From the IMG/VR virus record IMGVR_UViG_3300044723_001306, positions 1 through 37,221 of that record: DNA of 37,221 bases; one strand, written 5' to 3'. Positions 10,564 to 36,764 of this stretch are shown here, in pieces (positions within the stretch are counted from its first letter, which is position 1; each line of letters opens with the position of its first letter). Below the pieces are notes generated by a model, which was given only the letters and a program-made list of their open reading frames with translations, made no database searches and was not told the DNA's origin. The DNA is from a virus (taxonomy: Duplodnaviria; Caudoviricetes). Both the position numbers and the translations under genes were made by a program.

Positions 10564-13500
10564 TAATTTCTCCTCACGCTACCGCCTGTACTACCTTCCC
10601 TATCTAATCTAGATAAAGCTTTTCTAATTTCGACTGCAGCTTTTCTAGCTTGTGATGGGTCAGCTGGTACACCAGTAACATTAACTGATAAGTTTTCTAC
10701 TACTGTATTATTACCACGTCCTCCGTGAGTTAGTGGTTTTACTAAGAAACCAGAACCCGGAACAAATCTTACTTCTTCAGGACCATACTCTCCAACAAGA
10801 GCTCTTCTCATTAAATTATCTCTTCCACCCATAGCATACTTCTTAGGAGAAATATGTGTCATATCAGGAACTCTTCCACCCATCTTAAATCCTTTAGCTC
10901 TTAATCCCATCATTCCTTGAGGGAGATTAATTCCATAACCTGAATATAAATTTTCTGCAAAACCACCAATCAATCCTCTTAGCCAATCAGAGGCACCACC
11001 ACCGCCTCCACCATTTCCAGAATCAAGATTTATATTTATATTGCTCTTAGCTTTTGGCGTACCGAATCCACTAGGGTCTAAATTGTCGTCATTAAAGAAT
11101 TCGTCTACAACAGGACCCGTTCGTAAAGCAGCTTCTCCTTCTAAGAATAAGTTTAACAATTGTTTATATGCACTATCTTGCATACCTAATAAACCAGATG
11201 CCATAAGTTCTTTGCTGAGACCTTTACTTATAGCTTCTGCATTTGCAATCGAGAAAGCTAGTTGACCATCATCAGTTCTAACTGTACCTACACCCATTGC
11301 ATTAATTAATGTATCAAAAATACCTGCATAACCATCACCAGAAAGTAAATCTTCTGGTCTTTGTAATCTTTTTTTAACTGAGCCTGAATTTATCATGTAC
11401 TCTGAAAATTTATCAATGTTAGACAAATCTGTTATTTCTCTACCACCTTTACCACCTAGGTCTTTATACAAATCCATAAGTATTGGATTACTAGTCATAC
11501 CAAGTAACCCTTGGTTCATGAGCGTACCAAAAGAAGCTCCTTCAAATGGAGTACCTCCACTTACAGCTTGTACTGCACTCATGTACATATTAGTAAAGTC
11601 AGATAATCCACCCATGTCCATCATTTCATCTAATTCTTTAGCAAATAATAATTCTGATAAATCTGATACAACATCAGATATTTGTGTCTTAAGACCACTG
11701 AAATCAAAAGTTCCATCTGCAGATAGGTTGGTAATCGTATCGATAAGTGTTCCTACTCTTTCATTTACACCACCAAAAGCATTGTCTAAAGCTTTTATTT
11801 CTTCTTGGTACTCAGGTGCTTTTTCTTTGAACTCTGCATAAGCTGCTTCTACGGCTAAAACACCAGATGCTACTGCTTCTTCTGCTTCAGCTATACTATT
11901 AGCTCCAGCTTGTATGTCTAGTTGAATTAGTTTTTGTTCATCTAATAGGCCAATATATGTGTCCCTAGCAGCCACTAATTCTGGAGAAGTTTCTAGTATT
12001 TCTTTTTCATATTCTGCTTTAGCGTCTATTGCTTCAGCATACTCTAGTAAGAATAATTCTTTTTCTGTGTCAGTTTTAAATTCGCCTTTCATGTCTCTAA
12101 GAACATCTTGTTCTGATTCAAGTTCTAATCCAGAAACAATACCTAGATTAAACATCCTTCCAAGTTCAGAAACTTTTCTTTCTTGAGCTTGTATATCTAA
12201 AGCTTCTCTTGCTGTAAATTCTTTGTTTAATCTACGTTTTCTTTCTGATAAATCAATTTCTCTTTGTAAAACACCTATTCTTTCTGAAGCGGTAATGTTT
12301 CCTGCCATTCCCTCAATTTCCAGTTTTACTAAGTTTTCTTTAGCTTTAGCCAATCTATCGGTTAATGTTGACTCTCTTCTAAGAACAGAAGCATAATCTT
12401 GTTTTGTTTTTACTAGATTTCTAGCTTGATTAGTTTGTGCTCTTTCAGCTCTAGTAACATTAGTAATAACCTGAAATGCTTCTTGCATTCTTGTAGTTGC
12501 TTTAGCATAAGACTTAGATAGTTTTTCTGCAAACATATCAAGATTTTGCATCATTTCAGTTCCAAAGGATTTTATAAGTCCTTGAGCTAAAAATTTATTT
12601 GGAGCAAACTCACTATTAGAAGCGACAATATTTGTTAAGTCACTATAGTTTATGCTAGTACCTTTATAATTTCCTTCTAAGTTTAGATTCTTTGTAATAT
12701 CTTTAGGGTTAGTAGCTCTTTTAAGTACATTGTTAAATGTGTCTTTTAATTTTAATTCACCATCTTCAATACCAACAATAACACCATCAATTAAAGGTTG
12801 ACCAATTGCTCTCCTCATTAACTGAGATGGAGAACGTATTATAAATAATTTTACTGCTCCATCAAAAGCTTTCATTAGTATGCTAGCAAATGCTTCAGAT
12901 ACTTCCTCTGACCTATCATTAAGTCCTTGAAGAATTCCTTCTACAGACCTTTCACCAAGAACGTATCCCATTTCTTCTAGTCGTTCTGCATCTGCACCTT
13001 CTGCTTCATCTGGTACAATTTCAGATACATAATCTGCACCGCCTAAACTTCTAAGATACATTTCTTGCGCAGCAGCTAATGCAGGATTATTTAAAAATTC
13101 TTCAGCCATGCCTAATCCACCAGAACCAACTCTTGAAAGTTCTGCTGCTAATACAGGTTTACCTAAATCACCCAGTAGTGATGTAGCTTGTTCAAATCTA
13201 GTTTGTTGTGCGTCTTTTTTAATAGTGTTCATTAGAACATCTAGTGCTGTCATGTCTTCAAAAGCATCTTCAGGTAAAGGAGCTGTCAAAGCTACTAATG
13301 ATTTTCTTGCTTCCTTGAACGCTTGGTCAAGTCGAGCAGCTAACTGTAATGCAGCTGATTCAGTGATTCCAAGTTCTTCTTGTAATTTTTGAGATGTTAA
13401 TTCTGATTGCTTTGAAAATCTATCGTAAGCATCTAAATATAGTGATGATATTTTTCCGTAGTTATTGCCAGCTCTTTTAACTTCTGCTTCTGTAACTAAT

Positions 13501-16500: not shown

Positions 16501-17825
16501 AACATTCTCATGTCTGTAGCTGCTGCAGTTACTGAAGCTCTAACAGATTTGAATGCTGCAACAATACCGAATATAGGAATTATTGTTCTACTGAAACTAT
16601 CTGTTAAATTTAAAGCAGTTCTAGTTGTTATGAATAATATGTTATTTAAATCTTTAACAATTTTTTTAGCGCCATCTAATTTATCTAAACCAAAATCAAT
16701 AAACTCAGCTTTGAGTATGTTTTTACCTTTAGCTAATTCAGAAAATAAAGTTTCGTATCTTCTTTCTGCTTCTTCGGTCAAAGCAATATTTTCTCTATAA
16801 GCTACGTTTGCAGTTTCTAATGCGCTGTATAGTGTCTCATTTGCTTTTGCTAAAGCTAATATAGCTTTCTGTGTTCTAACCTGTCCAAGTCCTAGTTTTT
16901 GAAGTACTGTTATATTTGTTTGACCAACACTACTTGTATCATCTAGTCCTTTTATAAAAGCAGCAACAGCTTGACTAGAATCTAGACTGTATAATTCTTC
17001 AAAAGCAGGAACTGACATTCTTGAAACGTCAGCAAATAATTTGAGACTATCTCCACCCTGAGCCATAGCTTCTGAAAGTTCTGACATTAACCTTACTATT
17101 GCAGTAGCACCAGCTTGTGATGGCTGACCTATAGCTCTTAAAGCGGTTGAAAATGCTAATGCATCAACAGCAGCATTATTCATTTCACCTTGTATCTGCG
17201 CAGTAGATGTAGCTATTTGCATAGCAGCATTTACTATTTCAGATTCTTGAGCAGCAAAGTTGTTACCTAAAGCAACAAGAGAAGAGCCTAAGTTATCTAA
17301 TTCACTTACAGTACTTCCAGTAATTTCTTGAAGTCTGGACATAGCCATAGAAGCATTTTCTGCAGATAAGTTTGTTGCTACAGTAAGTTTTTGTATTGTA
17401 TTTGTAAAAGCTACAATGTCGCTAGCAGCAACACCTAACTGACCACCAACTGAAGCTATCTCTGTAATTGCATCAGTAGTAACAGGTGATTGTTTAGTTA
17501 AGTCACGAAGTTTTTTACCTATGTTATCAAAAGATTTTTCTATTTGAGCAGACTCACCTTTTATGTCTAAGGTTTTCTTTACTCTAACAAACTGCTCTTC
17601 GAATGAAGCAGCTGCCATTGCACCTGCACCAAATGCTGCAACAATACCAGCACCTGTGGTCATAAAAATTGTTTGTGAAGCACGAGCTGCTGAAGCAACT
17701 CTACTCATTCTAGTTCTAAGTGAATTAAAAGAAGTTGCTATTTCACTGTTAGCACGTCTAAGTGAATTTTTATCGTAACCTGCTTCAATTACTGCACGTA
17801 CTTTAAATGCGTCTACTGCTGCCAT
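10563..17825 (-). CDS. Tape measure protein
   Basis: 2420 aa, helical and Ala-rich; N-terminal TP901-type core (FEEQFVRVKKT...GGQLGV...LGSSLVALGNNFAAQESEI); C-terminal MGG and VGEYGPE motifs; follows the tail chaperones. Confidence 0.95.
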   Translation of the reverse strand: MAAVDAFKVRAVIEAGYDKNSLRRANSEIATSFNSLRTRMSRVASAARASQTIFMTTGAGIVAAFGAGAMAAASFEEQFVRVKKTLDIKGESAQIEKSFDNIGKKLRDLTKQSPVTTDAITEIASVGGQLGVAASDIVAFTNTIQKLTVATNLSAENASMAMSRLQEITGSTVSELDNLGSSLVALGNNFAAQESEIVNAAMQIATSTAQIQGEMNNAAVDALAFSTALRAIGQPSQAGATAIVRLMSELSEAMAQGGDSLKLFADVSRMSVPAFEELYSLDSSQAVAAFIKGLDDTSSVGQTNITVLQKLGLGQVRTQKAILALAKANETLYSALETANVAYRENIALTEEAERRYETLFSELAKGKNILKAEFIDFGLDKLDGAKKIVKDLNNILFITTRTALNLTDSFSRTIIPIFGIVAAFKSVRASVTAAATDMRMFATLSERATIAGKTMATAYNTGSKGAGRFTASNVLSYSTGEDGTEIDPMLARAMVPRSFMGNRLGLPFNTLGPSGTSTTKMGKFMQLNLKERLSNLGIGKSYSMRVLDTLAQPQLVEQIFGGKTPDSLLMSTDKQEDVQLSAAGRMKMAELRKKYLAGQMKKAEFENQKSGIMSDNTITRGVEKRYKDAAFSQDYFQRFSRETALGGVKTYMPTAMGQAQARGSLLRAQMRTAPRELAIKALKKIESPSNPFKTMANEIKSVYEPQIRDIMSRVTEGIQKATGAAKNFGNQFKFIFRGLREFAMLWINGFKDGIKEIATFFKNQFGFIFRGLRDFARLWIDGFKDGIKEIGTFFKNQFGFIFRGFRDFAKLWIDGFKDGITQLTAPIRKVIGQLREGMSFGMQQDKLFRMFDPSIPNRYNNAVKAIHPTVKKIRDTINQFFKGREGLVDRKTGKSIGDEAIPSLMNRLRARAGGVIDKVKAIRPPINTETVAVRDEDGNIRNIQKKTGGFLGAAQAKISSGIKKLESMQIKSQARINQRQKMYDDLAIFRQDMKNKGAVTYKQIIDNQIKALLKRNQAETGIDPAGLTKRQMSKFRGAALGGRMGAFEEHIAELRTRAETTKDLSFEELQLLDATDKARAGMGRFTNALKGMALAAGKVIFQLVAFQAVFAFVAKMGAKSRGIEEFAASLSTVSEKLREIQVESIKLSQLTASDGPLSSITDKATLEAAEKKIKDIGLQLEKAKRDAAQEIGTSFVNDIIIAGTGNEGSLLETLIKYEMKMFEKSRDQVTKEIGSSIGNVLINAIDPEILAANAGKLPSVDDVLNSVLFNGKEIGKDVNVPSDIFDGVSSSILIGLQDSIGKSVSGKDLIDMLGIDDINDPSVRMELLYDLNNWMSKFYKVDLVDNITGESLSGGPVKALNKVFDNVKKSLEAQGLEFEDSDIAKFTLDLVQAMSTAEGVIGMSIGGIGENFDKTLSENSIIGKQVKEFMKNRLKDFRDTGLVTEAEVKRAGNNYGKISSLYLDAYDRFSKQSELTSQKLQEELGITESAALQLAARLDQAFKEARKSLVALTAPLPEDAFEDMTALDVLMNTIKKDAQQTRFEQATSLLGDLGKPVLAAELSRVGSGGLGMAEEFLNNPALAAAQEMYLRSLGGADYVSEIVPDEAEGADAERLEEMGYVLGERSVEGILQGLNDRSEEVSEAFASILMKAFDGAVKLFIIRSPSQLMRRAIGQPLIDGVIVGIEDGELKLKDTFNNVLKRATNPKDITKNLNLEGNYKGTSINYSDLTNIVASNSEFAPNKFLAQGLIKSFGTEMMQNLDMFAEKLSKSYAKATTRMQEAFQVITNVTRAERAQTNQARNLVKTKQDYASVLRRESTLTDRLAKAKENLVKLEIEGMAGNITASERIGVLQREIDLSERKRRLNKEFTAREALDIQAQERKVSELGRMFNLGIVSGLELESEQDVLRDMKGEFKTDTEKELFLLEYAEAIDAKAEYEKEILETSPELVAARDTYIGLLDEQKLIQLDIQAGANSIAEAEEAVASGVLAVEAAYAEFKEKAPEYQEEIKALDNAFGGVNERVGTLIDTITNLSADGTFDFSGLKTQISDVVSDLSELLFAKELDEMMDMGGLSDFTNMYMSAVQAVSGGTPFEGASFGTLMNQGLLGMTSNPILMDLYKDLGGKGGREITDLSNIDKFSEYMINSGSVKKRLQRPEDLLSGDGYAGIFDTLINAMGVGTVRTDDGQLAFSIANAEAISKGLSKELMASGLLGMQDSAYKQLLNLFLEGEAALRTGPVVDEFFNDDNLDPSGFGTPKAKSNININLDSGNGGGGGGASDWLRGLIGGFAENLYSGYGINLPQGMMGLRAKGFKMGGRVPDMTHISPKKYAMGGRDNLMRRALVGEYGPEEVRFVPGSGFLVKPLTHGGRGNNTVVENLSVNVTGVPADPSQARKAAVEIRKALSRLDREGSTGGSVRRN
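15363..15636 (-). repeat. About 2.8 tandem copies of a 99-bp (33-aa) repeat inside the tape measure gene
   Basis: NQF(G/K)FIFRG(L/F)R(D/E)FAxLWI(D/N)GFKDGI repeated three times; recognisable at DNA level (cctctaaatataaaaccaaattgattttt twice, 99 bp apart). Confidence 0.9.
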
Positions 17826-20067: not shown

Positions 20068-23000
20068 TTACCAACTAGGAGTTATTTTAAACATAGGATT
20101 ACCATCATTATCTCCAAATATTGTTCCATATTTGTAAGCACGTTGGCTATTATGCGGGTAAGCGTCCATAATTTCTTTTTGTAATTTTTTAAAATCAGAA
20201 ATACCCATTTGTACTACGTCTTTAATAGTTTCAGATTTAACCATTTTTCTGTTTAGAGAATAAGCAGGAAATAAGCTAAAAGCACCTTCAATTAATTTAA
20301 AAGATTCTGGTAGATTTTCTTGTGAATTTATACCATCTAAGGTTTTATTATTTACTCCATACATCCATTTAACACTATCGTCTGCTATATTTGACCTCAG
20401 CATAGGGCTTCTTATAGAGTGGTAATATACGCCCTTCAAAAATAGAGCTCTTTGATAGTCATTAGGAAAATAACCAGTATTAGTTCCATTATGTAATATT
20501 ATTGCTAGCTGTTCTGCTGCAGCACTCGGGCTACCCTTTACATTCCTTCTACCTTGCCAAAATATTTGACCTAAATCAAATGGTGCCATAGAGTCATAAC
20601 CACCAATTACACCCATTATTCTTTTAGTACCCTTCTCTAATAACGACCCTCTAGTAATATTTTTCATAGCAATTTCTTCGATGTAACTATCTCCATATTG
20701 AGGAGCAGTAGTGTTTACTGTTCTAACAGCTAAATCATCAACATACGCAGTACCAGTGCTCTGCAAACCACTAGTCAAACTGTCCTTTAAGGTTCCTCCA
20801 GCAGATGCAGAAAGAAAATCATCTACCACGGCAGTACCATTTCTTTGAACATATAAGTCAAACAAAACGTCATCAGATAAAAGTCTATCTCTTAACACTT
20901 GTGCATTGTGAACTGCTCCTATTGAAGATTGATTAGTGCTTACAATTTTATCTACACCTCTCATAGGGTCTGTAGAAAAATCTCTAAAAGCTTGCACACC
21001 TGGGTCGTAGTAATCTTGTAAGTCTTGCTCAAGTTGAGTAAATGGTCTAGATGTTCCCTCTATACTGTCATAAACCAGATTTTTTTCTGTAAATACCTTT
21101 CTTTTACCTGTTTCAAAATCTTGTTCAACTATGTGTGCTTTGTAAGCAGCATCTTCAACAGAGTAAACAATATTTACAGAGTGAACATCTTCCCAATTAA
21201 TTTTTTCAGCATTTGCATGATAAAATTGTTTTATTACATCTTTGTCTACTCTTTTTTTATCTGCGTATCTTTTTGCAATAAACGCAGATGCAGATGCAAC
21301 ATTAATTTTTGCTCTTTCTACACTGTAAGCCTGTGATTGAAGTAAATTTCTAAATTGAATCTCGCTACTATCTAAACCATTTATGTTCTTAAAAAATATA
21401 CTATTGTGCCTATTTTGAAACTTTAAAGTTTCTTTTCGTGCAGTTTCTGAAATAGCTTTTTCTATAATACTTTTTGTTTGAGTATCAACAGAATCCATTA
21501 AAGGGGTTAATCTTTTAGTCATAACTCTTTGTAATTCATAATTTAACCCATGTATAAAATCTTTACCTAAGAATATTCTTTTGTATTCATTAATTGGATG
21601 TCTAGGGTCATTTAATGCTATATAACCACCTCTAGGCCCTCTAAAAGGACCACCCTGTGCTTTAGCTAAATTAAATGCTGTTACAAACCCTTCCCAGCTA
21701 CCTTCTAATATTGCCTTAATTTTTGGGTCACTAGCCGGATTTAGATTCATGCTTAAATCAAATCCAAATTTTTCTAGGAATATTCTGTCACCCTCATTTT
21801 TAAAACCCAGGTCTCTAATTGCTTCAGGTTCAATACCTGTAAACTTAGATGCTTTTCTATAATCAATTTTTCCAGTTAAAGGATTCTTAAACATACCAAC
21901 CATGTTTTTCATATCTCCTTCATTAAGATTTAGTACAGGCATCTCTCCACTAGCCATACTTCCATTAGCCATGTTTTGATAAAATGTTCCATAAAACTTT
22001 GTAACCCCAGGTGTTTTACCACTCCCATGTTGATATAGTGTATCGGGAGTGCTTTGTTGACCAGACAATTGACCAAGTTGAATTGTTTCTCTTTTACCGT
22101 AATAACCAACAGAACTCATATTTACCTCTGCAAAGTTAGCTATACTATTAGCTTTATCATCAATGACATCTAATATTCCTTGTTTATCCAACATTGGACC
22201 ATCAATACCTAAATTTCTTTTTTGACTATTGTCCATCATTCTAAACACGTCTGTAGCTCTTACATTTCCTACAGCACCAGATTGTCTAAATAAAGCTAAA
22301 CTTCTACCCATGGCAATACGTGCTTCATTTGCATGGTCTGAACCTCTTATGGTTCCTTTTTTATTTTGAATTAAACCTTTAAAATCTTTTTCCATTTGAA
22401 GTATTCTTCTAACTCCATCTTTACGAGTCCTCTTAAGTTGTTGTTCTTCTCTTTTTAAATTACGTCTAACTTTTACACCAGCTTTGTCAGAAGAACCTAT
22501 GTCGTAAGGGCTTCTTATTTGATAAACGCCTTCAATACTACTAGCCATTCTAAATGTACCACTTTTACCTGCAGCATTTGCTGTAAAAGAACCACCACCT
22601 GTATCAAAAATACCAAAAAATGCTGCTGCTCTAGTTCCTGCTTTACCCATAAAGTTAGATGCCAAATAAAACATACCATCAGTTCTTGAGTCTAGAGTCA
22701 TGTTTCTATCATGAGCAGGACCACCAAACTCAATTGAAAATATGTCTCTAATGCCATCTGCTTTTTTAGATTTAGATGATATACCACCAGCAGATACTTG
22801 ATATCTAAATAAATAATCTGTACCGTCGTTTTCGTTTTTACCTTTTCTTTCCATTCTGTGCATATGAATAGATTTTTGAATTTGTATTCTTGTTGGAACG
22901 TAGTTATGTGATGTTCTCATTTTTTGAGACCTACCTTTATTTTTTGCAGTACTGTCAAATGCAGGGTTGGAAAATGTAGATAATCCTCTTTTCTCAATAT

Positions 23001-25239
23001 TCTTTCCACCACTCTTTCCACGTATTGTATAATCAAAAGTACCAAATACATACTCTAATAAATCATCGTCTTGCATACCTACTAGAAGTTTTGCAATTTG
23101 TTTTTCAGCATCTCTAAATAATTTAGTAGCGCCTGTGTTTTTAGAACCTCTTGCATTTATTGCAGCATTCAACAGTGCATGTGTTTGAGTAGTTTTTGCA
23201 ACTTTAGTATAATTTGTATGTAATGTTTTTATTTTTTTATCCCACCAAGATACATCTTTGCCATAGAGTGTGTCACCTTCATTTGCAAATGCACGACTTG
23301 TACTTCCAACTTGGTTTTTAAATTTTTGGTTTGTAGAAACTTTAGGTCTACCTTTAGAATCATAAGTTATACTTATTCCAGGGACTTTACCAGTAACAAT
23401 ATCTATATAACCTATAGAGTGACCTAAACCCATTGTGGTAGGAGCAGCAGCTTTACCTGCATGATAAATATTATTGACCATACCGTCAGTAATTACACTA
23501 GATTTAGTAGAATGCATTCTTAAACCCTTAACCCCTTTATGTCTATTTGCCTGCATGGTCACTTCTCTTAAATATTCAGATTCATAAAAAGGTCCAGAAG
23601 CAGGCCTAAACCTAGCTTCAGTAACAAGTGGTGTTCCAGTTATATATTTGCTAATTTGGTCAGCTTTGTTAAACGCGTTTATTGTAGTTGCTTCACTTGA
23701 CCTTACTGCAAATGCTCCCTGTGTAAGATTTTTATTTCTACCTCTGTCAAAGTTAATCATTTGTCCAAGTATTGCACCAGTATCTTGATATCCATTCTGC
23801 ATTAGCCAATTAGAAAATCTTCTGATTGCTTCACGTTCTGTTGCTCTACCTACAATTTCTTTACCTACAACATCAGCATTTATTGACAAAATTGCTTGTG
23901 ATAAATATCTAGCTGCATTTGCTGGTCCTTTTACTCCTTTAAGAACTTGCTCAGATGCCATATGACCAAATGATTGTAAAAAATGTTGTAACTCTTTAAG
24001 ACCATCATCATTTAAAAACAATTGCGACAGTGCAGCTCCATTTCTTCCTGCGTCTTTATTTAAACTTACTAAAAAATTGTTTCTTAATAAAGCTTGCTGT
24101 TTTCTCATTTCAGCTGTTGTAACACCACCAGTAATTGTATTAATATGTATATTGTCTTCTTTAGTTGCTCTCCTTACACCAGTAACTGGGTCTTTTTCTC
24201 CTACTTTTTGATTTCTTGGTGTAAGCATTTTACCTTGACTTCCAAGCTCTTTATAATTACGTGTTTGAGTAAAAGCAATTAATTGATTAACTCTATTGTA
24301 TTCTGCTTCACGCATCATCTCAGTTCTAGCTTTTTGTGGTAATGTCATAGTTCTTGCGTCATCTTGATATTTATGATTAGCTATAGCATTGTCTAAAACA
24401 TCTGCAAGTCTTTTCTGAGTTCCTCCCATTCCTTTTTCAAGTATGTCTGAATCTGCAATACCAACTTTTGACAATACTTTATCTATTGAAATTGGTAATT
24501 CTGCAGGTTGTTCAAACGTAATACCCTCAAATATTCTTTTACCACTTTTGCCTTGTTTTATATTAGAAGAAACTTTTTTTCTATTTTTTTCTCGACTCAT
24601 TACTTGCATAATTGGGTTATCAGTAAAAGGATTAGGGGCGTGTGTATATGCATCAGCAAATGTTCTGTTACGCCATTGAATAAATACATTGCCTTTTCCT
24701 GGTATCTGCGCTTGGTTTAAAAGAGTATTATCCACTCGACTAGGATTTACTTCTTGAAGTAAACTCATTACTATACCACCAGAACCAACAGACCTAGCTT
24801 GTTTTAATAATGCAGATGTCTCCCTACCTATAAGAATGTTTGTTGCTCTATCTATTGGTGTATTCGTTTTAACAGCACTGCTAATTGTAGGTCTAATTTT
24901 ACCAACAATTTTTGCTGCACCTAGTAATTTTTGACGACTAAGTATTTGACCACCTAATACATTACTGGGATTTCTAAGGTTCTTTTTAATAGCATTTAAG
25001 TTGTTTCCAAATTGACCAACCATATAAGGTACAGAACCTAAAGCAGCAAAATCAACACCAAATGCTCCTAGTGTTGATAAGTTATAACCTACTGCATAAA
25101 GTAATTCTTTTCTAGGTAGATTACGTAATGATTTGAATAAAGGTATCTTACCTTTGCCATAATTTGGGCTTTTATCGGTAAGTGTAAAACCACCGGATTT
25201 AAAGAACTCTTTAACATACTGACCAGGTCTATAAGCCAT
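20068..25239 (-). CDS. Giant basic protein in the HK97-gp10-like neck slot
   Basis: 1723-aa intact ORF coupled to the head-closure gene (TGATG); dispersed gp10-like motifs AP...IQKSI...IEFGG...FMGKA. The ORF is secure; the family call is tentative. Confidence 0.6.
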   Translation of the reverse strand: MAYRPGQYVKEFFKSGGFTLTDKSPNYGKGKIPLFKSLRNLPRKELLYAVGYNLSTLGAFGVDFAALGSVPYMVGQFGNNLNAIKKNLRNPSNVLGGQILSRQKLLGAAKIVGKIRPTISSAVKTNTPIDRATNILIGRETSALLKQARSVGSGGIVMSLLQEVNPSRVDNTLLNQAQIPGKGNVFIQWRNRTFADAYTHAPNPFTDNPIMQVMSREKNRKKVSSNIKQGKSGKRIFEGITFEQPAELPISIDKVLSKVGIADSDILEKGMGGTQKRLADVLDNAIANHKYQDDARTMTLPQKARTEMMREAEYNRVNQLIAFTQTRNYKELGSQGKMLTPRNQKVGEKDPVTGVRRATKEDNIHINTITGGVTTAEMRKQQALLRNNFLVSLNKDAGRNGAALSQLFLNDDGLKELQHFLQSFGHMASEQVLKGVKGPANAARYLSQAILSINADVVGKEIVGRATEREAIRRFSNWLMQNGYQDTGAILGQMINFDRGRNKNLTQGAFAVRSSEATTINAFNKADQISKYITGTPLVTEARFRPASGPFYESEYLREVTMQANRHKGVKGLRMHSTKSSVITDGMVNNIYHAGKAAAPTTMGLGHSIGYIDIVTGKVPGISITYDSKGRPKVSTNQKFKNQVGSTSRAFANEGDTLYGKDVSWWDKKIKTLHTNYTKVAKTTQTHALLNAAINARGSKNTGATKLFRDAEKQIAKLLVGMQDDDLLEYVFGTFDYTIRGKSGGKNIEKRGLSTFSNPAFDSTAKNKGRSQKMRTSHNYVPTRIQIQKSIHMHRMERKGKNENDGTDYLFRYQVSAGGISSKSKKADGIRDIFSIEFGGPAHDRNMTLDSRTDGMFYLASNFMGKAGTRAAAFFGIFDTGGGSFTANAAGKSGTFRMASSIEGVYQIRSPYDIGSSDKAGVKVRRNLKREEQQLKRTRKDGVRRILQMEKDFKGLIQNKKGTIRGSDHANEARIAMGRSLALFRQSGAVGNVRATDVFRMMDNSQKRNLGIDGPMLDKQGILDVIDDKANSIANFAEVNMSSVGYYGKRETIQLGQLSGQQSTPDTLYQHGSGKTPGVTKFYGTFYQNMANGSMASGEMPVLNLNEGDMKNMVGMFKNPLTGKIDYRKASKFTGIEPEAIRDLGFKNEGDRIFLEKFGFDLSMNLNPASDPKIKAILEGSWEGFVTAFNLAKAQGGPFRGPRGGYIALNDPRHPINEYKRIFLGKDFIHGLNYELQRVMTKRLTPLMDSVDTQTKSIIEKAISETARKETLKFQNRHNSIFFKNINGLDSSEIQFRNLLQSQAYSVERAKINVASASAFIAKRYADKKRVDKDVIKQFYHANAEKINWEDVHSVNIVYSVEDAAYKAHIVEQDFETGKRKVFTEKNLVYDSIEGTSRPFTQLEQDLQDYYDPGVQAFRDFSTDPMRGVDKIVSTNQSSIGAVHNAQVLRDRLLSDDVLFDLYVQRNGTAVVDDFLSASAGGTLKDSLTSGLQSTGTAYVDDLAVRTVNTTAPQYGDSYIEEIAMKNITRGSLLEKGTKRIMGVIGGYDSMAPFDLGQIFWQGRRNVKGSPSAAAEQLAIILHNGTNTGYFPNDYQRALFLKGVYYHSIRSPMLRSNIADDSVKWMYGVNNKTLDGINSQENLPESFKLIEGAFSLFPAYSLNRKMVKSETIKDVVQMGISDFKKLQKEIMDAYPHNSQRAYKYGTIFGDNDGNPMFKITPSW

Positions 25240-25613: not shown

Positions 25614-26258
25614 TTAATTTATGGTATCAGTGACCTTGCTGTCAATGCTTCTTTTCATTCTTCTAGATTTAGATTTACAAATTTTACAAAAAGGAACAAG
25701 TCCATCTTTGTATTTTCTATTACGAGTAAAAGAACTCCTAGATTTTTCTTTTTTACATAATAGGCATAATTTTTTATCATTTAAAATATTTGAAGTTTTT
25801 TTAGTTAAACAGTTAACACAATATGGAACAAGTCCATCTGCATATTTTTGACTTTTAGTAAATTCAATAATGTCTTTATCTTGATTACACTTTTTACAGA
25901 CTTTACTAGTAGGATTTAATTTTTTACTTTTTGCTATATTTTGTGATTGTGTAATTAAAGACTCAACTTCAGGATTTTTTCTCATCCATGTCATAAAGGC
26001 ATCTCTACCAATAGGTAAATCTTCATAAAGTTCTAAAGAAGTTAAAGTATGCTTTCCAGAAGCAATATCTTCTGATATCTTTTTTGCTAATCTCATATCT
26101 AATTTATATTTAGACTTGACACCAGATTCTAACTTTATTTGCCTGACTCTTTCAGCAGTGCATCCCCATTCATCAGCCCAATCTTGTAATTTTTTATTAG
26201 GAAATTGCAAGAACATTTTTCTTGCTACTTCTGGTGTTGGTGCTTTTCTTATAGGCAT
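25614..26258 (-). CDS. DNA-binding protein: sigma-region-4-like HTH plus two C4 zinc-finger repeats
   Basis: LQDWADEWGCTAERVRQI; CKKC...KYADGLVPYCVNC and CLLC...KYKDGLVPFCKIC; strongly basic. Confidence 0.7.
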   Translation of the reverse strand: MPIRKAPTPEVARKMFLQFPNKKLQDWADEWGCTAERVRQIKLESGVKSKYKLDMRLAKKISEDIASGKHTLTSLELYEDLPIGRDAFMTWMRKNPEVESLITQSQNIAKSKKLNPTSKVCKKCNQDKDIIEFTKSQKYADGLVPYCVNCLTKKTSNILNDKKLCLLCKKEKSRSSFTRNRKYKDGLVPFCKICKSKSRRMKRSIDSKVTDTIN

Positions 26259-26272
26259 AGCCTATATTTTAG

Positions 26273-26932
26273 CTAAATAAAAAAACTTTTTTTGTATTGT
26301 CCCAACATATTTATGTCTGCACCTGAAAGTATTGCTACTGAGTTCATACCTATGTTACCTACATAGTTAATCTGATAGTCCCCAACAGATTCTGAGTCTG
26401 TGGCAGTAAAGTTTCCAACTTGGTCTGTTAAAGGTTTTTGAGCAACAATTTCATTTGGTTCTTGTTGAGCTGAAAGAACTAATGCAGATTCAAGTAATCT
26501 TGCAGCTGCTCTTGCAGTGACAACTTTAAAGTTGTTAGGTAATGCAGGTCCTGTTCCACCACCAGTGTTATATCCAGCAGTATAACTTACAGTTATATTA
26601 TCTGGATATGCAAATGACCATCTAGAACCTAATCTTCTTATACGACCATTTGAATACCATAAAAAATCTTTTTGGTTTCCGTATTCTAAGGTAGTTCCAT
26701 CTTCTACTACAGATGTGACTCCCAAAACAGGTCGTTCATCTAAAAAGTATTCTTTTGTTTGGTTACCTGAAAAAGTTTCAGTGTATGTTCCGTAATCTAC
26801 TGTATAACCAACATATTCCCTAATAGCATCTTCGACTACAGGAATTAGATTGTTAGTTAAATGAGATTCTAAGTCACTATGAAAGTCTATTAAGGCAAAT
26901 GTCTCTACATCAGCAGCAGTACAGAAAGCCAT
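26273..26932 (-). CDS. Head-tail connector / adaptor (gp6/gp15-like)
   Basis: MAFCTAADV...IREYVG...ITVSYTAGY...ESVGDYQINY...LGQYK; strong AGGAGGT RBS. Confidence 0.85.
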   Translation of the reverse strand: MAFCTAADVETFALIDFHSDLESHLTNNLIPVVEDAIREYVGYTVDYGTYTETFSGNQTKEYFLDERPVLGVTSVVEDGTTLEYGNQKDFLWYSNGRIRRLGSRWSFAYPDNITVSYTAGYNTGGGTGPALPNNFKVVTARAAARLLESALVLSAQQEPNEIVAQKPLTDQVGNFTATDSESVGDYQINYVGNIGMNSVAILSGADINMLGQYKKSFFI

Positions 26933-26942
26933 TTATGACCTC

Positions 26943-27209
26943 CTATTCGTCTTCAGATTTAGATTCTTCTACCTTAGCGGATTTATCTTCTACTGGTTTT
27001 TGAGCTTTAGTTTTAGCTGGAGCTGCTTTTTTAGCAGGAGCTTTCTTAGGAGCATCTAATGCGCCTTGCTCTTTTAACCATTCGGTGGGATATTCCTTAC
27101 CAGCTTTAGCAATTAAGTCTGCTTGAGCTGATGGTAAATCTGCTGGAACACCTTTCCAGATTTTCCCGTCAGGTAATTTATAAACGTTTGTGTCTAATAT
27201 TGTATACAT
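26943..27209 (-). CDS. Small capsid-adjacent protein with Lys/Ala/Pro-rich tail
   Basis: 88 aa; PKKAPAKKAAPAKTKAQKP low-complexity C-terminal segment. Confidence 0.75.
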   Translation of the reverse strand: MYTILDTNVYKLPDGKIWKGVPADLPSAQADLIAKAGKEYPTEWLKEQGALDAPKKAPAKKAAPAKTKAQKPVEDKSAKVEESKSEDE

Positions 27210-27225
27210 AATAATCTATCCTAAC

Positions 27226-27288
27226 CTACTTCCCACGCTTCTTTGGTTTTTTAGGTCCTTTCTTAGGTTTATATTTTCCATAACCCAT
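27226..27288 (-). CDS. Lys-rich micro-peptide MGYGKYKPKKGPKKPKKRGK (20 aa)
   Basis: Manual translation; AGGAGA upstream; starts 3 nt after the stop of the preceding micro-ORF. Confidence 0.7.
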   Translation of the reverse strand: MGYGKYKPKKGPKKPKKRGK

Positions 27289-27291
27289 AAT

Positions 27292-27378
27292 TTATCTTCT
27301 CCTAGGTCGTCGTCTAGCACTTTTTTTAGGGCGAACTCTACCACCCATTCGGTATGATTTAGGTCTACCCCTCGGCAT
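27292..27378 (-). CDS. Arg-rich protamine-like micro-peptide MPRGRPKSYRMGGRVRPKKSARRRPRRR (28 aa)
   Basis: Manual translation; start overlaps the end of the upstream ORF by 14 nt; purine-rich GAGGAGAAGG upstream. Confidence 0.7.
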   Translation of the reverse strand: MPRGRPKSYRMGGRVRPKKSARRRPRRR

Positions 27379-27544
27379 CTTTTTCTACCTTCTCCTCATC
27401 AGAAACTTTTTTTGCCTTCTCTGTTTTAGGAATAGTAAAATTTTTTAATATCTCTTCAGACTTTTTAAAAAAATCTTTATCCCTTACAATCATTCCAAAT
27501 CTTTCAACTTGGTCTTTTGCATTTTGTTTGTTAACGTATTTCAT
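27365..27544 (-). CDS. Small charged hypothetical protein (59 aa)
   Basis: MKYVNKQNAKDQVERFGMIVRDKDFFKKSEEILKNF...DAEG; AAGGAG 4 nt before the ATG; just under the ORF-track size cutoff. Confidence 0.75.
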   Translation of the reverse strand: MKYVNKQNAKDQVERFGMIVRDKDFFKKSEEILKNFTIPKTEKAKKVSDEEKVEKDAEG

Positions 27545-27556
27545 AATTCTCCTTGT

Positions 27557-27594
27557 GGTTTGAAGGGCGAATACAAATCCGCCCTTATAAAACC
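27557..27594 (-). terminator. Stem-loop after the capsid gene (partial terminator or mRNA stabiliser)
   Basis: Minus strand GGUUU..AAGGGCGGA UUUGUA UUCGCCCUU..AAACC; no U tract follows. Confidence 0.6.
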
Positions 27595-27601
27595 GTCAGT
27601 A

Positions 27602-28834
27602 CTATATGTTAGTAATAGTACAGAATGCTGTTGGGCGATAAATCGCAAAACCAAGACGCATAGTTAATCTAATTGCCAATTGGTTCTTTGCGAAGAAATC
27701 GCTGTGGCTGTCAGAAACAGCTAGGTCAACGCCTTCTCTCATAATTACTTGAGCTGCGTCGCCACCGCTGAACTTACCTACAAGCATTGTGCCTTCAGCA
27801 ATAACTGTTGAAGGAACTACTTTTAGTCCCCAAATTCTTGGAGCAGCATCGGCACCAAAGCCACCAGCAACCACAAATAATGGGTTCTTAGAACCACTTG
27901 TGTCTACTTCTGTGACTGAAGTTACGATGTCGTACCAGTCAGATGGGTGCATTACTATTGAATCAGGTTCGACGAAAGCGTCTTTTCTGATTTCTGTAAT
28001 TGCTTGATAGATTTGTCCAAGCTTTCCTAATTCTCCAGCGTATGGTAAAGCGTAATCAAATGTATTGATTCCGGATTTGTTTAATACACCAGTTAAATTA
28101 GGAGCTGAACCGTTACCATTAATTAATTGGTTGTCCATGTTCAACTTCATCATTGTTGATAAACGTGAGTTGACATATCCTTGGATACCAGTAACATCAG
28201 CTAACAATTCGTCAGTTACAGGCAAGAAAGTAGCCATCTTTCTGATGGATTCTGTCCTTTCTGTAAATGCTAAAGCACCTTCATTAGATGTACTAATGTC
28301 AGTAGATTCAGCAACTGAACCAGCATTGTTTGTGAATGTTGTCTCTTCGAGATAGACATATGCATTTTGGTTAGTTTGAATTTGGTCAAACAATCCAATA
28401 ACGCTGTCTGGATTACGAAGAGCGGTCTCTAGGATTCCAGGAGCTCTTACGCTCTCTGGTGGATAACCTGTTGTGTTTAAAGTTGTTTTAAATTCAGCTT
28501 GTGAATCTACACCTTTAACGCCTTTTTCAACATATGCTTTATAAGCATCTGTCTGAGCAAATTGTTCCCCAATAGATTGTGGACCTTTTTGCTCTGGCAT
28601 TACATTTGGTATAGAATTTACAGGCTCTTTATCAACCTCTAAAGCTTTCTCGTTTTTGACTTTAGCTTCTTCTATTTTTAAATCCTCAACAAGTCCAGCA
28701 AGTTCTGTGTTGTAGCCTTTGATTTTCTCTTTGGCTTCAGCTGTGTACTTACCGTCTTCTTGTGAATCAAAAGCAGCTTTTAAGTCTTCACGAGATTTTG
28801 CAATTTGCTCTTTGAGCTTTGCTACTTCACTCAT
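27602..28834 (-). CDS. Major capsid protein, HK97 fold with N-terminal delta domain
   Basis: Coiled-coil N-terminus, SIGEQF, KMATFLPVTDELLAD, LINGNGSAPNLTG, VMHPSDW, FAKNQLAIR...YRPTAF; AGGAG RBS. Confidence 0.97.
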   Translation of the reverse strand: MSEVAKLKEQIAKSREDLKAAFDSQEDGKYTAEAKEKIKGYNTELAGLVEDLKIEEAKVKNEKALEVDKEPVNSIPNVMPEQKGPQSIGEQFAQTDAYKAYVEKGVKGVDSQAEFKTTLNTTGYPPESVRAPGILETALRNPDSVIGLFDQIQTNQNAYVYLEETTFTNNAGSVAESTDISTSNEGALAFTERTESIRKMATFLPVTDELLADVTGIQGYVNSRLSTMMKLNMDNQLINGNGSAPNLTGVLNKSGINTFDYALPYAGELGKLGQIYQAITEIRKDAFVEPDSIVMHPSDWYDIVTSVTEVDTSGSKNPLFVVAGGFGADAAPRIWGLKVVPSTVIAEGTMLVGKFSGGDAAQVIMREGVDLAVSDSHSDFFAKNQLAIRLTMRLGFAIYRPTAFCTITNI

Positions 28835-30056: not shown

Positions 30057-33000
30057 TTATTTAATGGGTTTTATAACTTTTAGTTTTGATATTGGCATAG
30101 TCACTTTTCTGTCTGTTTTTTTGTGACTCCCGTCTTCCATTATTGCATAAACTTGCATTGTAGATTCTTTCTTTTCTCTATTAACAGAAACTACTATTCC
30201 ATGTACTGTTGATGGTGGGTCTGGGTCTTTATTAATAGACCAACTTACTGATTGACCTACTCTAACAAAACTTGCCTTTTCTTCAATCTCTCCAGATTTT
30301 TTAGAACTCAATGGATGATTGCTAGGTAATAAATCTTGGTCATATGGTTTTCTTTTAAATCTACCAGTTCTTAATGCGTTTAAGAAACCATTAACTCTTG
30401 CTAATCCCCACTGGTCAGCTCCTGTTACATTTCCTCTAACTGAACCAGGGTTTGTACGATAAGCACCTACACCTCTATTAAATACAGATGTTAATGTTCT
30501 AAGATTTGCTCTATACTTTGGATTCTTATCGTTGTGGTCTTTTACTTTTTGAACTAAAGCTTTTCTTACTCTAGATGAAACTGCTTTTGTCTCAGCTAAT
30601 TTTTCTTCATAAATTTCATCAGCCATATTTTCAGCAGCTTTTCTTCTAGCTCTAACAACTTTCTTTTGGTCATTAATAACTTTCTTCATACCAGATACGC
30701 CGATATTAGAAACGCCACCCCATTTAATATTTGCTACTGTTCCAGCAAGTCTTGTATTACCTTGATGTCTTCCCATATAACGTTCTCTTCTACGAACCCA
30801 GTTAAGAACTGATTCGCTTCTGTCGCCACTTTGGTATTTAGTCCAATTTCTATAAGCATCATTACCTGTAAAAGAAGTTGGAGGATTACCTCCATTACCA
30901 CCACGTCTCCAAATCTCTGGCCAATTTTCTTTTAGGTCTTTTGCATAACCATAAGGAAATTGTTTATATTTAGAATTAGAAATACTAACAGCTCTGTCAT
31001 CTCCTGGACTTGGAAAATTTGTTCTATCTTTTTTAGGTTTTTCTTTTATATTTTCTGGTTCCATACTAAATTGTGATTCCATTAATACTTCAGCTTCCTC
31101 ATAACTTACTTTTAACTCTTCTACGATACCATCAATATAAGATTTTTTTGTTCTTTCAAAAGACTCGTGACTAGCACAAGGCATGTAGTAAGTTGTTCCT
31201 CTTACATCATGCTCATGATATCCAGAACATCCTATTTCTTCTGCTCTTCTTTCAGCAGCTTCAACTGTGTCATACATAAACATATTGCTAGAAGTATTTC
31301 TATCTGGGTTTGCAGATTTTATTAACTTATCGTAGTCTTCATCATTTTTGCAAGGCATATAAAACTTACCTGCTGGTCCTCTGTCAACAACATGATAGCC
31401 ATCACAACCTAATTCTTTTGCTCTTGCTGTAGCTTCTTCAGGAGTAGTATAAGTATCAGCCATTACTGGTGCTGCAGCTTTTTTAGGTTTCTTTTTTAAA
31501 TAAGATTGTGCTTCTTTTTCTGTGTCAAAACATTTAATAACTTTTCCATCATCATGACTAATAACACACCAAGCACCATTAGGCATTTCAGCTATATACT
31601 TACCTTCATTACGAGGTTCTTCATTCTGTTGTACTCTTTGGTCTCTTAAATTAACTTGTGGATATTCTTCCAATGTAAGTAAATCTTTTTGTTCGGTTTC
31701 AACATTAGTATCAGCTGCTTGTAATTGTTCAGTCCTCGCTTGTCTTCTATTGGCTTCAGGTACATCATTTAATATTGCATTACCATCGCTATCAACTTGA
31801 ATCATATTTAAAGGTCTTAAATATACATCATGCTTTTCATCAACATTTAATCCTACAACTTTTCTAGCTTCACCAATTGTTATCCAACCACCAGATACAC
31901 CCATGTTTACTCTTTTGTAAAGATTATCTACATCTGTTTGTAAAGCTCTTACTGACTGTATGTCATAGTCACACATTAAATTTTTATCTTTAAAATCTGG
32001 TATTAATAATTGATGAGTAAGCTCATTAGCAACTGTTCTCCACATTGGAACAAGTTTTTGTTCTGTAAAAAATTCTCTAAGTTCTTTTGTATTATTAAAA
32101 GTTGCCGCGTCTAGTCCAGCTCCGAGTCCAGCGAGAATTGCTGGGACACCTAAAACAGCAGATACTCTTTCTTCTGGTATTCTTCTAAGCTCTGCTAATT
32201 TCATTTGGTCAGGCGTAAAAGAAACTACTTCAACATTCATTGCACCAGATAAAACCATAGGAGCGCCTCTATTTGCACCACCAAATTTTTCTTTATACAT
32301 TGCAGATATTGATTCTGCTTCTTCTTTTGTTGGGCCCCCATACCCATCAGTCCTTGGTGTTAATACAACACCTGGAACAGCCATGTTATTCAATAGAGCA
32401 GTTGTGAATTGTCCAGCTGATTCGTCACCTAAGATTTCTCTTAGAACTGACTTAAGAGGAGCATGTCCTCTCCTGTGGTCATTAGGGTCAATTCCTTGTC
32501 GGATATGTACCATGTCTTCGGCATCTATTTTTATAAACTCACCTTTTCCATGTGTATAGTATTCATAATGTGTAATAAGTTTTTGTTCGTTACCTCTTAC
32601 TTCAACTAAGTGAGGCATTAAAGGTACAAGTTCTACAACTTGACCTCTTGCGTTTTTATTTTTAAATAAGAAAGCATCACCATTAGTATTCAAAGCTAAA
32701 ACTATATAGTGAGACATTAAGTTATGTGACATAAATGGGTTAGGTCTTCTAAGTAATTCAGCTAAAGGGTGGTTGTAGTTTACTTCTCTGTCACCAAATA
32801 CTTGGTCTCTTTTAACAACTTGTAACATTGGTTCAGCAAATGAAGTTGCAAGAACATTTAAGCAAGCTGTAACAGCAGAGTTACCAGAACCGTCTCCTAT
32901 TTCTTTAAGTTTGTCTGATTCCCAAAAACCTGATGATGTATTGTATCCATATATGGATGCGTCGTTTCCAAATAACTGATTGTAATTTGATTGTGCTTTA

Positions 33001-33065
33001 ACTTCTCTACGCCTTGAAGGCACTATAGAGTCTAAAGCCTTTTGTAATCTGCTTTTTTCTTCCAA
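30057..33065 (-). CDS. HK97-family portal protein with about 580-aa multi-module C-terminal extension
   Basis: HPLAELLRRPNP, NGDAF, NMAVPGVVL, GANRG, VLGVP, ITIGEAR portal motifs in the first ~420 aa; TTG start. Confidence 0.93.
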   Translation of the reverse strand: MEEKSRLQKALDSIVPSRRREVKAQSNYNQLFGNDASIYGYNTSSGFWESDKLKEIGDGSGNSAVTACLNVLATSFAEPMLQVVKRDQVFGDREVNYNHPLAELLRRPNPFMSHNLMSHYIVLALNTNGDAFLFKNKNARGQVVELVPLMPHLVEVRGNEQKLITHYEYYTHGKGEFIKIDAEDMVHIRQGIDPNDHRRGHAPLKSVLREILGDESAGQFTTALLNNMAVPGVVLTPRTDGYGGPTKEEAESISAMYKEKFGGANRGAPMVLSGAMNVEVVSFTPDQMKLAELRRIPEERVSAVLGVPAILAGLGAGLDAATFNNTKELREFFTEQKLVPMWRTVANELTHQLLIPDFKDKNLMCDYDIQSVRALQTDVDNLYKRVNMGVSGGWITIGEARKVVGLNVDEKHDVYLRPLNMIQVDSDGNAILNDVPEANRRQARTEQLQAADTNVETEQKDLLTLEEYPQVNLRDQRVQQNEEPRNEGKYIAEMPNGAWCVISHDDGKVIKCFDTEKEAQSYLKKKPKKAAAPVMADTYTTPEEATARAKELGCDGYHVVDRGPAGKFYMPCKNDEDYDKLIKSANPDRNTSSNMFMYDTVEAAERRAEEIGCSGYHEHDVRGTTYYMPCASHESFERTKKSYIDGIVEELKVSYEEAEVLMESQFSMEPENIKEKPKKDRTNFPSPGDDRAVSISNSKYKQFPYGYAKDLKENWPEIWRRGGNGGNPPTSFTGNDAYRNWTKYQSGDRSESVLNWVRRRERYMGRHQGNTRLAGTVANIKWGGVSNIGVSGMKKVINDQKKVVRARRKAAENMADEIYEEKLAETKAVSSRVRKALVQKVKDHNDKNPKYRANLRTLTSVFNRGVGAYRTNPGSVRGNVTGADQWGLARVNGFLNALRTGRFKRKPYDQDLLPSNHPLSSKKSGEIEEKASFVRVGQSVSWSINKDPDPPSTVHGIVVSVNREKKESTMQVYAIMEDGSHKKTDRKVTMPISKLKVIKPIK

Positions 33066-35899: not shown

Positions 35900-36508
35900 T
35901 TATACAAAAATCCAATCGTGTTTTTTTTCTTCAGGTCTATCTCTGTAAAGTACTTGAAATATATTAGCTACCGCCATAGTATCTGCAATAGCATCATGTT
36001 CTTTATAGTCACCAAAACCAAATTCGTGGTGTATGTGAGATAAGGTAAAACCAGAACATCTTGATGTACAACTATCAAAACATTTAGTTCCTTTGGGAAA
36101 ATACTGTTTAGCTAATTCTTTAGTGCATAACCACTCATTAGTAAACATAGGGTGGTTATATAAATCTAGAGTATCTTGCATAACTTTTTTATCAAATGAT
36201 GCATTATGTGCAACTATAGTCTTTTTTCCTATTAGTCCTACTAGTATTGGAAATAACTTGGTAAATTTTGGTGCATTTATACAAAATTCTTGTTTAGGAG
36301 AAGCAAATGACCATTTTTCGTTGAAGTACGCTTCTGGTGGTTTGATATAACTATGAGCATTTTTGTACTCTCCGTCCTCAAACCATACTAAAGCTATCTG
36401 TACTGCGTCTTGTTTTGATACATTTGAGTCGAAATAGTATCTACCAAGTAAGTCTTTACCGGTTGTTTCGAAATCTAGGAATATAAAATCATTTAGATTC
36501 TTTTTCAT
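35900..36508 (-). CDS. DEDDh 3'-5' exonuclease (DnaQ/epsilon-like); start revised to ATG 36508
   Basis: ExoI DFETTG, ExoII HNASFD, ExoIII HDAIAD; GAAAGG upstream of MKKNLNDF; the revised start avoids a 101-nt overlap with whiB. Confidence 0.9.
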   Translation of the reverse strand: MKKNLNDFIFLDFETTGKDLLGRYYFDSNVSKQDAVQIALVWFEDGEYKNAHSYIKPPEAYFNEKWSFASPKQEFCINAPKFTKLFPILVGLIGKKTIVAHNASFDKKVMQDTLDLYNHPMFTNEWLCTKELAKQYFPKGTKCFDSCTSRCSGFTLSHIHHEFGFGDYKEHDAIADTMAVANIFQVLYRDRPEEKKHDWIFV

Positions 36509-36764
36509 TGTTACGCCTTTCTCTTCGAATAGCTCTTCGTTCTCGCTCTGATTTACCTCCCCAGATACCAAAACGTTCTTTTCTGTCAACTGCGTACTCT
36601 AAACATTGCACCTTAACCTTACATTTACCACAAATCTTCTTAGCAATAATTGTAGAACTTCCTCGCTCCGGGAAAAAGTCATCTTGATTAGTGCCTTTAC
36701 AATTAGCGTCCTTATAAAAGCTAGGTACTGCTAATAAATCTTCTAGCTCAGTATGTAAATCCAT
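36489..36764 (-). CDS. whiB: WhiB-family Fe-S transcription regulator
   Basis: C...FFP...AKKICGKC......CLEYA...GIWGG..ERERR, with all four cysteines. Confidence 0.97.
   Translation of the reverse strand: MDLHTELEDLLAVPSFYKDANCKGTNQDDFFPERGSSTIIAKKICGKCKVKVQCLEYAVDRKERFGIWGGKSERERRAIRRERRNNEKESK

Follow-up and report, generated by a model that had tools for sequence, protein, structure and literature searches.

The window analysed here, a stretch of 37,221 nucleotides from a virus record in IMG/VR (IMGVR_UViG_3300044723_001306), represents the late region of a siphovirus with 35% GC, in which terminase, portal, S78 protease, HK97-type capsid, adaptor and tail genes are encoded on the minus strand. 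In this late operon, the slot between the capsid and adaptor genes is occupied by four small open reading frames, termed A to D. It is bordered upstream by the gene of the HK97-type major capsid protein of 410 aa (27602..28834, minus strand; Pfam PF05065, E 3e-36; phrog_10) and downstream by a head-tail adaptor gene (26273..26932, minus strand; phrog_442, E 3.5e-22). The gap of 392 bases between the capsid stop (27602) and the start of D (27209) contains ORF A (27365..27544, minus strand), a protein of 59 aa with a net charge of +2, predicted to be helical and with the conserved core F-G-x3-R-x3-F-F, followed by peptide B (27292..27378, minus strand) and peptide C (27226..27288, minus strand). 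Peptide B has 28 aa and a net charge of +14, with 14 K/R and no D/E; it starts with P-R-G-R-P, continues with one x-x-G-G-R-V repeat (often two in relatives) and ends in an Arg tail. Peptide C, of the M-x-Y...K-P-K-K type, has 20 aa, of which 10 are K/R and none D/E, and a net charge of +10. ORF D (26943..27209, minus strand) encodes 88 aa with a net charge of +1 and carries the stretch PKKAPAKKAAPAK. All four frames are present on the minus strand where the sequence-only reading had placed them, and none of them matched an entry in Pfam, PHROGs or NCBIfam.

The proposal that these frames are missed by standard gene callers holds for B and C, whose exact sequences are absent from a collection of 15 billion proteins, but not for A and D, whose exact sequences are present there. 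Purine-rich ribosome-binding sites had been ascribed to the three packed ORFs. AGGAG or GGAGG indeed precedes 20 of 22 distinct starts of A and 15 of 16 of C, but only 2 of 10 starts of B, the others having shorter (five) or weaker (three) matches. The start of B overlaps the end of A by 14 or 1 bases, and translation of B is probably coupled to that of A. Every tryptic fragment of B and C has five residues or fewer, so this class of peptides is invisible to tryptic proteomics.

A stem-loop of -20.2 kcal/mol (z -3.3) lies 3' of the capsid stop (27557..27594, minus strand), with the ribosome-binding site of A just beyond it. A hairpin with z < -2 follows the capsid gene in all 41 distinct sequences, and the stem sequences differ. 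That of the window was not called in a promoter/terminator scan because it lacks a full U-tract. The hairpin probably makes the capsid mRNA more stable or terminates part of it, and the cassette would then likely be transcribed by read-through at a level below that of the capsid gene. The high expression proposed in the sequence-only reading is thus not supported. The T-rich tail after the hairpin is mostly present in relatives without A and mostly absent in relatives with A, which suggests that read-through may be tuned via this tail. An RNA-library contig of a relative spans the capsid gene, the cassette and D, which shows presence rather than a transcript or its level. In three RNA runs, assembled contigs covered the protease-capsid region and left out B and C, and one RNA contig identical to the window ends at 27549, just past the hairpin, this being one stop in one study. 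One DNA run used for comparison likewise left A and B uncovered.

The capsid protein served to retrieve eighty relatives, with 67-100% identity; one of them is identical to the window. The end of the capsid gene was missing in five, and in nine the sequence broke off within the cassette, which left 66 loci to be counted. D occurs in 66 of these, A in 46, C in 42 and B in 18. The architectures were ACD (24 loci), ABCD (18), D alone (18), AD (4) and ED (2), where E denotes a different, unrelated basic peptide of 23-24 residues found in the same slot. Both B and C are absent from about 20-22 of the 66 loci, and two further loci carry the basic peptide E. Where cassette genes are absent, they are absent cleanly, with short spacers left, and a capsid tree of 41 rows requires at least 10 changes of architecture. 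With neither gene present in about a third of the loci, B and C are optional and dispensable.

The sequence-only reading had named conserved frames and synonymous bias in relatives as a check on B and C, and both were found, in the coding frame only; the lack of conservation that it had named as a refutation was not observed. The in-frame pN/pS was 0.23 for B (11 distinct genes) and 0.25 for C (21 distinct genes), ratios that are descriptive because the pooled pairs are not independent. The genes had been picked by their first residues, and without these the values were 0.28 and 0.23, respectively. The alternative frames had pN/pS values of 0.76-4.1 or contained stops (+1, +2 and antisense: 2.29, 2.55 and 1.18 for B; 4.08, 0.76 and 1.60 for C). 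In terms of dN/dS, B (0.16) and C (0.11) are comparable to the last 100 codons of the capsid gene (0.13), and D (0.30) and A (0.36) are higher. At the invariant Arg columns of B, switching between AGR and CGN codons was observed in 5 of 11. The 26 distinct peptides of types B, C and E are all free of acidic residues, and across 24 variants of B and C, all without D/E, the K/R content is 46-52% in B and 50-58% in C. On these sequence comparisons, B and C are real genes maintained by selection. It might be argued that such frames are by-products of purine-rich spacer DNA, given that A/G-rich DNA reads K/R by default and that Glu-rich scaffold genes give K-rich +1 frames. The frame-specific synonymous bias, the AGR/CGN switching, the clean in-frame length changes and the clean absence of whole genes make this explanation hardly credible, and we regard it as largely refuted for B and C.

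In contrast to B and C, neither A nor D fits the picture of a basic, histone-like peptide. D had been likened to histone H1 on account of its tail, but its net charge ranges from 0 to +5 in 38 variants, far from the strong positive charge and the K/A/P-rich composition throughout that mark H1. Its first 50 residues are predicted to form an alpha/beta domain (pLDDT 86-91), followed by a disordered K/A/P/E tail. D has 370 homologues. A search with the predicted fold matched only unnamed phage proteins (best E 0.006) and nothing in the PDB. The nearest named Atlas clusters were L9-N, DUF7302 and DUF7210, a weak lead with scores of 0.76-0.77. Proteins of these groups share with D a small alpha/beta domain and a low-complexity tail, but D of the window matches no Pfam family at E <= 10 and no PDB fold. 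Because it is present in every complete locus, D is the core gene of the cassette, and its position suggests a conserved small accessory protein of head assembly. A turned out to be neutral to acidic, with a net charge of -13 to +2 across its variants. Its predicted model is poor (pLDDT 63), its Atlas scores do not exceed 0.79, and its longer forms include one 140-aa match; A is likely an optional helical partner.

The core of peptide B, Y-R-M-G-G-R-V, matches the repeat F-K-M-G-G-R-V in the tape measure protein of the same phage. Neither this match nor the breadth of the peptide class had been noticed in the sequence-only reading. This protein has 2420 aa (10563-17825, minus strand), and its residues 2313-2336 comprise two G-G repeats, F-K-M-G-G-R-V and Y-A-M-G-G-R (10818..10889, minus strand). 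Among the 11,768 residues encoded in the window, M-G-G-R occurs three times, once in B and twice at the tape measure end, in comparison to 0.09 expected, an expectation that is post hoc as the motif was chosen after being seen. In the window, the repeats and the G-E-Y-G-P-E-E-V after them lie 107 residues before the C-terminus. The tape measure protein pb2 of T5 is reported to be cut after R1127 (PMC10038345), and in the T5 record this residue is followed by A-E-G-G and then by G-E-H-G-T-E-V, 92 residues from the end. In lambda gpH, F-A-T-G-G lies 120 residues from the end, a position in agreement with the roughly 14-kDa C-terminal fragment of gpH, for which cut site and protease are described as unknown (PMC12617516). 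The tape measures of T5, lambda and the phage studied here are therefore alike in having x-x-G-G about 90-120 residues from the C-terminus, and the word x-x-G-G followed by G-E-x-G-x-E near the C-terminus was found in the tape measure of the window and in 13 of 13 ends from relatives. Neither PMC10038345 nor PMC12617516, in the portions available, describes the motif as a consensus. By analogy with T5 pb2, the tape measure of the window is likely cut at its G-G motif. Peptide B differs from T5 pb2 and lambda gpH in that the motif stands in a free peptide of 28 residues, without the G-E-x-G-x-E part.

G-G-R repeats were present in 10 of the 13 tape measure ends, some with three in tandem, and the other three ends (two from phages with D only) had a single different form. 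The repeat of B is duplicated in-frame in six of nine variants. Five relatives without B also have the tape measure repeat; as it occurs with and without B, the peptide is not required for it. B did not covary with the motif of the tape measure beyond clade; one of 10 records yielded no tape measure end. The open frames of the tape measure span 2420-3147 aa in the three phages that have B, compared with 1508-1826 aa in the seven that lack it, a difference that may reflect clade only.

Sequence searches indicate that B itself is confined to the family of the window's phage, since a B profile run against 1.84 billion representatives gave three matches, all of them B, and all 22 matches of a B DNA pattern lay on contigs of this family. 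The tandem form of the G-G motif is far more widespread, with an estimated ~3800 stored viral stretches. A sample of 120 such loci yielded 117 distinct ORFs, of which 23 were open-ended, 73 were closed and at most 150 aa long, and 21 were longer. All 73 closed ORFs of up to 150 aa were net basic, and three of the four longest ORFs were large and neutral to acidic. Neighbours were annotated for 16 of 24 long tandem-motif loci, and in 15 of these 16, head, portal, terminase, tail or virion genes were located within 3 kb; the upstream gene was a capsid gene in seven, a terminase gene in three, another virion or tail gene in five, and one had unknown families only. A protein of this type is also encoded by the cultured pelagiphage HTVC023P (gp43, 105 aa, net +0.24 per residue), three genes behind the capsid gene. 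Behind their capsid gene, HTVC023P-like podoviruses have blocks of several small basic proteins that contain x-x-G-G-x-V in tandem, and the N-terminal module of some of these proteins matches PHROGs annotated as virion structural.

Peptides resembling C were likewise encountered outside the family. A pattern of a ribosome-binding site followed by M-x-Y-x-K...K-P-K-K hit 74 viral loci in comparison to none with Asn in place of Lys, an imperfect control as AAY is rarer than AAR. Twenty-three of the 74 loci belong to the family of the window's phage and 51 lie outside it, and 70 of the ORFs comprise 10-20 residues. All seven annotated lineages with short peptides outside the family have them in virion gene blocks, one of them weakly: behind the capsid gene, behind the portal gene (two) or one gene further (one), between scaffold and capsid genes, nested in a scaffold gene of the T7 type, and next to a weak match to a tail protein. 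In the lineage last mentioned, a basic micro-ORF of 10-35 residues led by a ribosome-binding site was found in 68 of 80 loci, which were picked by an upstream 155-aa gene alone and are partly redundant, and in none of the 80 on the opposite strand. The slot behind the 155-aa gene holds many interchangeable basic micro-peptides, several with G-T-Y-G and R-G-R-P.

In the cultured cyanophage P-SSP7 (AY939843.2), an AGGAG-led frame of 13 residues, MPYHKKGGKKPKK, is nested in the +1 frame of the scaffold gene gp9 (positions 491-532 of the stretch fetched from this record). Other loci also have AGGAG-led lysine-rich frames of 11-13 codons nested in the +1 frame of a T7-like scaffold gene. Such a nested frame may simply be what a Glu-rich gene yields as a by-product. 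Eight cyanopodovirus scaffold regions were compared: P-SSP7 has the nested frame, two have a basic ORF of 18 residues right after the scaffold gene, two have one after hli, and three have none in the stretch covered. P-SSP2 lacks the nested frame and has a free-standing basic micro-ORF right after the scaffold gene. None of these micro-frames is annotated in the records. In the cultured phage CRP-901, one basic ORF of 54 aa lies at a distance from the capsid gene, which is not followed by a peptide cluster. The open-access literature searched contained no account of such peptides as a class, nor of the motif occurring in free peptides, and the parts available of PMC4819975, PMC10149686, PMC12753301 and PMC10713586 contain nothing on such peptides.

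Taken together, we give about an even chance to the reading that B and C are late polycationic peptides which are loaded into the virion and bind DNA locally, without condensing the whole genome. The role in the virion is suggested by the position of the genes and by the motif shared with the tape measure, and the binding of polyanions by the composition of the peptides. Both peptides would be unstructured and likely made late by read-through from the capsid transcript. B would be docked or cut by whatever handles the G-G motif of the tape measure, with a predicted cleavage before the R of Y-R-M-G-G. Once loaded into the virion, B and C may partly neutralise the DNA end in the neck or tail, or act at the inner shell. 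To our knowledge, no sorting route for such cargo has been described for HK97-type heads. A local role is favoured because of the limited charge and because a third of the loci lack both peptides: if every capsid subunit came with a single copy of each peptide, the two would offset 8-11% of the phosphates in a genome of 58-65 kb. The DNA-condensing or charge-neutralising function put forward in the sequence-only reading is best retained as a DNA-binding role in the virion, and its bulk form is made unlikely both by this coverage and by the loci without B and C.

Several viral proteins offer themselves for comparison. T7 gp7.3 binds the DNA end (PMC11784390), a local role of the kind favoured here. 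It has 99 aa, and B and C are 3-5 times shorter than gp7.3 and the phiKMV-like gp34; furthermore, gp7.3 and gp34 are reported to be essential, whereas B and C are optional and occur in a siphovirus (PMC11784390; bioRxiv 10.64898/2026.05.18.726046). Profiles of B and C gave no sequence match to T7 gp7.3 or gp34 in the PDB. T4 IPI-IPIII, to which B and C can be likened, are non-essential small proteins present in several hundred copies in the head and injected (PMC9958956). The T4 proteins are described there as using an N-terminal capsid-targeting sequence and the scaffold core, neither of which is evident for B and C (PMC9958956). Baculovirus P6.9 and adenovirus pVII share with B and C the short length, the Arg/Lys-rich composition, the lack of acidic residues and the late expression, which is predicted for B and C. 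Further protamine-like core proteins are adenovirus mu and the J protein of microviruses. These core proteins, as far as described, are essential, and their amounts suffice for coating the genome, whereas B and C are optional and provide about a tenth of the charge at capsid stoichiometry. B and C are therefore short, basic and devoid of acidic residues like viral protamine-like core proteins, but not universal or essential as these are.

In its strongest form, this resemblance would mean that the packaged DNA is condensed in bulk as by protamines, with D acting in the manner of H1, and the K/R content of B would fit this. Such a bulk condensation is highly improbable, since about 90% charge neutralisation is cited for dense packing (PMC3281028), close relatives do without both B and C, and D is neutral and folded. 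Composition as such is of little help in choosing among the other readings, as polycations bind any polyanion, and it cannot separate virion DNA from RNA, ribosomes or the cell surface. The same charge and selection evidence would thus fit peptides acting in the infected cell, either by compacting replicated DNA for packaging or by binding RNA, ribosomes or the host nucleoid, and an optional presence would suit a fitness add-on. B also opens with P-R-G-R-P, which we take to be an AT-hook-like motif. P-R-G-R-P-K is invariant in nine B variants, but B had no Pfam match at E <= 10, and 1 of 14 related peptides, a member of the G-T-Y-G...R-G-R-P class, scored E 0.062 on the Pfam AT-hook family (PF02178). 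On the other hand, such peptides are restricted to virion gene blocks in unrelated phages, the motif of B is common to a virion-internal tape measure protein, and profiles of the C type gave no match to a ribosomal peptide in Pfam, NCBIfam or the PDB at E <= 10. We therefore consider a function in the infected cell unlikely. The small ribosomal peptides Thx and bS22, which B and C presumably resemble, were tried as candidates and rejected, as no match was obtained in Pfam, NCBIfam or the PDB at E <= 10; the best PDB match of B was a stretch of 14 residues of trypanosomatid eL21 (E 0.04), taken as chance.

Alternatively, B may serve as a decoy or as a substrate that sets the timing, by competing for the protease or docking site that recognises the G-G motif of the tape measure, with C, A and D as helpers outside the finished particle. 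This explanation takes up the identity of the motif and the in-frame duplication of the repeat, and T7 gp7.3 has been described as a scaffold for assembly. However, K/R residues beyond the motif make up half of B, C is commoner than B without having the motif at all, and B does not covary with the tape measure repeat beyond clade, so that we judge such a regulator of assembly improbable. Very improbable, in our view, is an action on the outside, as a cationic surface decoration that aids adsorption or as membrane-active helpers of lysis: polycationic, late and optional peptides would be suited to it, but B and C have neither a hydrophobic face nor a folded anchor, and in all but one annotated lineage (with a holin nearby) the neighbourhood consists of head rather than lysis genes.

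The packaged DNA of tailed phages is held to be neutralised by cations and polyamines, not by proteins, and a 2012 paper states that there is no evidence for basic proteins contributing much to neutralising phage dsDNA (PMC3281028). Polycationic micro-genes that are widespread in virion operons would qualify this protein-free view. We entertain only as a doubtful extension that polycationic genes of 10-35 residues, hidden from gene callers and tryptic proteomics, are widely used by tailed phages of sea and lake as interchangeable core peptides, that the G-G motif serves generally as an address or cleavage tag for all ejected cargo of the virion lumen, and that B represents a minimal free-standing cargo. 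If true, this extension would overturn the view that nothing but metal ions and polyamines neutralises the DNA of tailed phages, and B would provide a substrate of 28 residues for finding the tape measure protease. The class can be tested in the cultured models P-SSP7, P-SSP2 and HTVC023P. The motif of B also offers a minimal probe for the long-open question of which protease cuts tape measure proteins (PMC12617516).

Several properties of the window point to marine Acidimicrobiia, and thus to an actinobacterial host, because they combine a WhiB gene (36489..36764, minus strand; Pfam PF02467, E 3e-20) with a low GC content and with RNA datasets carrying related sequence that are estuarine or marine. 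The named WhiB homologues are from Acidimicrobiaceae (55-58%), and WhiB-bearing phages of 34-36% GC have been reported for Ca. Actinomarinales (PMC7771536). A search of bacterial genomes for a clue to the host found no prophage and gave one capsid match of 27% only. WhiB was not found in five unrelated records with C-like peptides, all of which are fragments. The record of the window is rated 99% complete, but it is probably a fragment of a longer genome, as relatives of about its length have completeness ratings of 57-72% and the genome of one complete relative comprises 65,040 bases.

Three other proteins of the late region deserve mention. At a place where phages usually have a small gene for tail completion, flanked by the genes for head closure and the tail terminator, the window encodes a protein of 1723 aa with a net charge of +69 (20068-25239, minus strand). 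It has no Pfam match, weak PHROG matches only and F-K-S-G-G near its N-terminus; possibly it is virion cargo. With two DUF3721 repeats and a region resembling DUF5824 added to it, the portal protein reaches 1002 aa (30057-33065, minus strand). Finally, a basic protein of 214 aa with two endonuclease VII-like zinc-finger stretches is encoded between two head-tail adaptor genes (25614-26258, minus strand).
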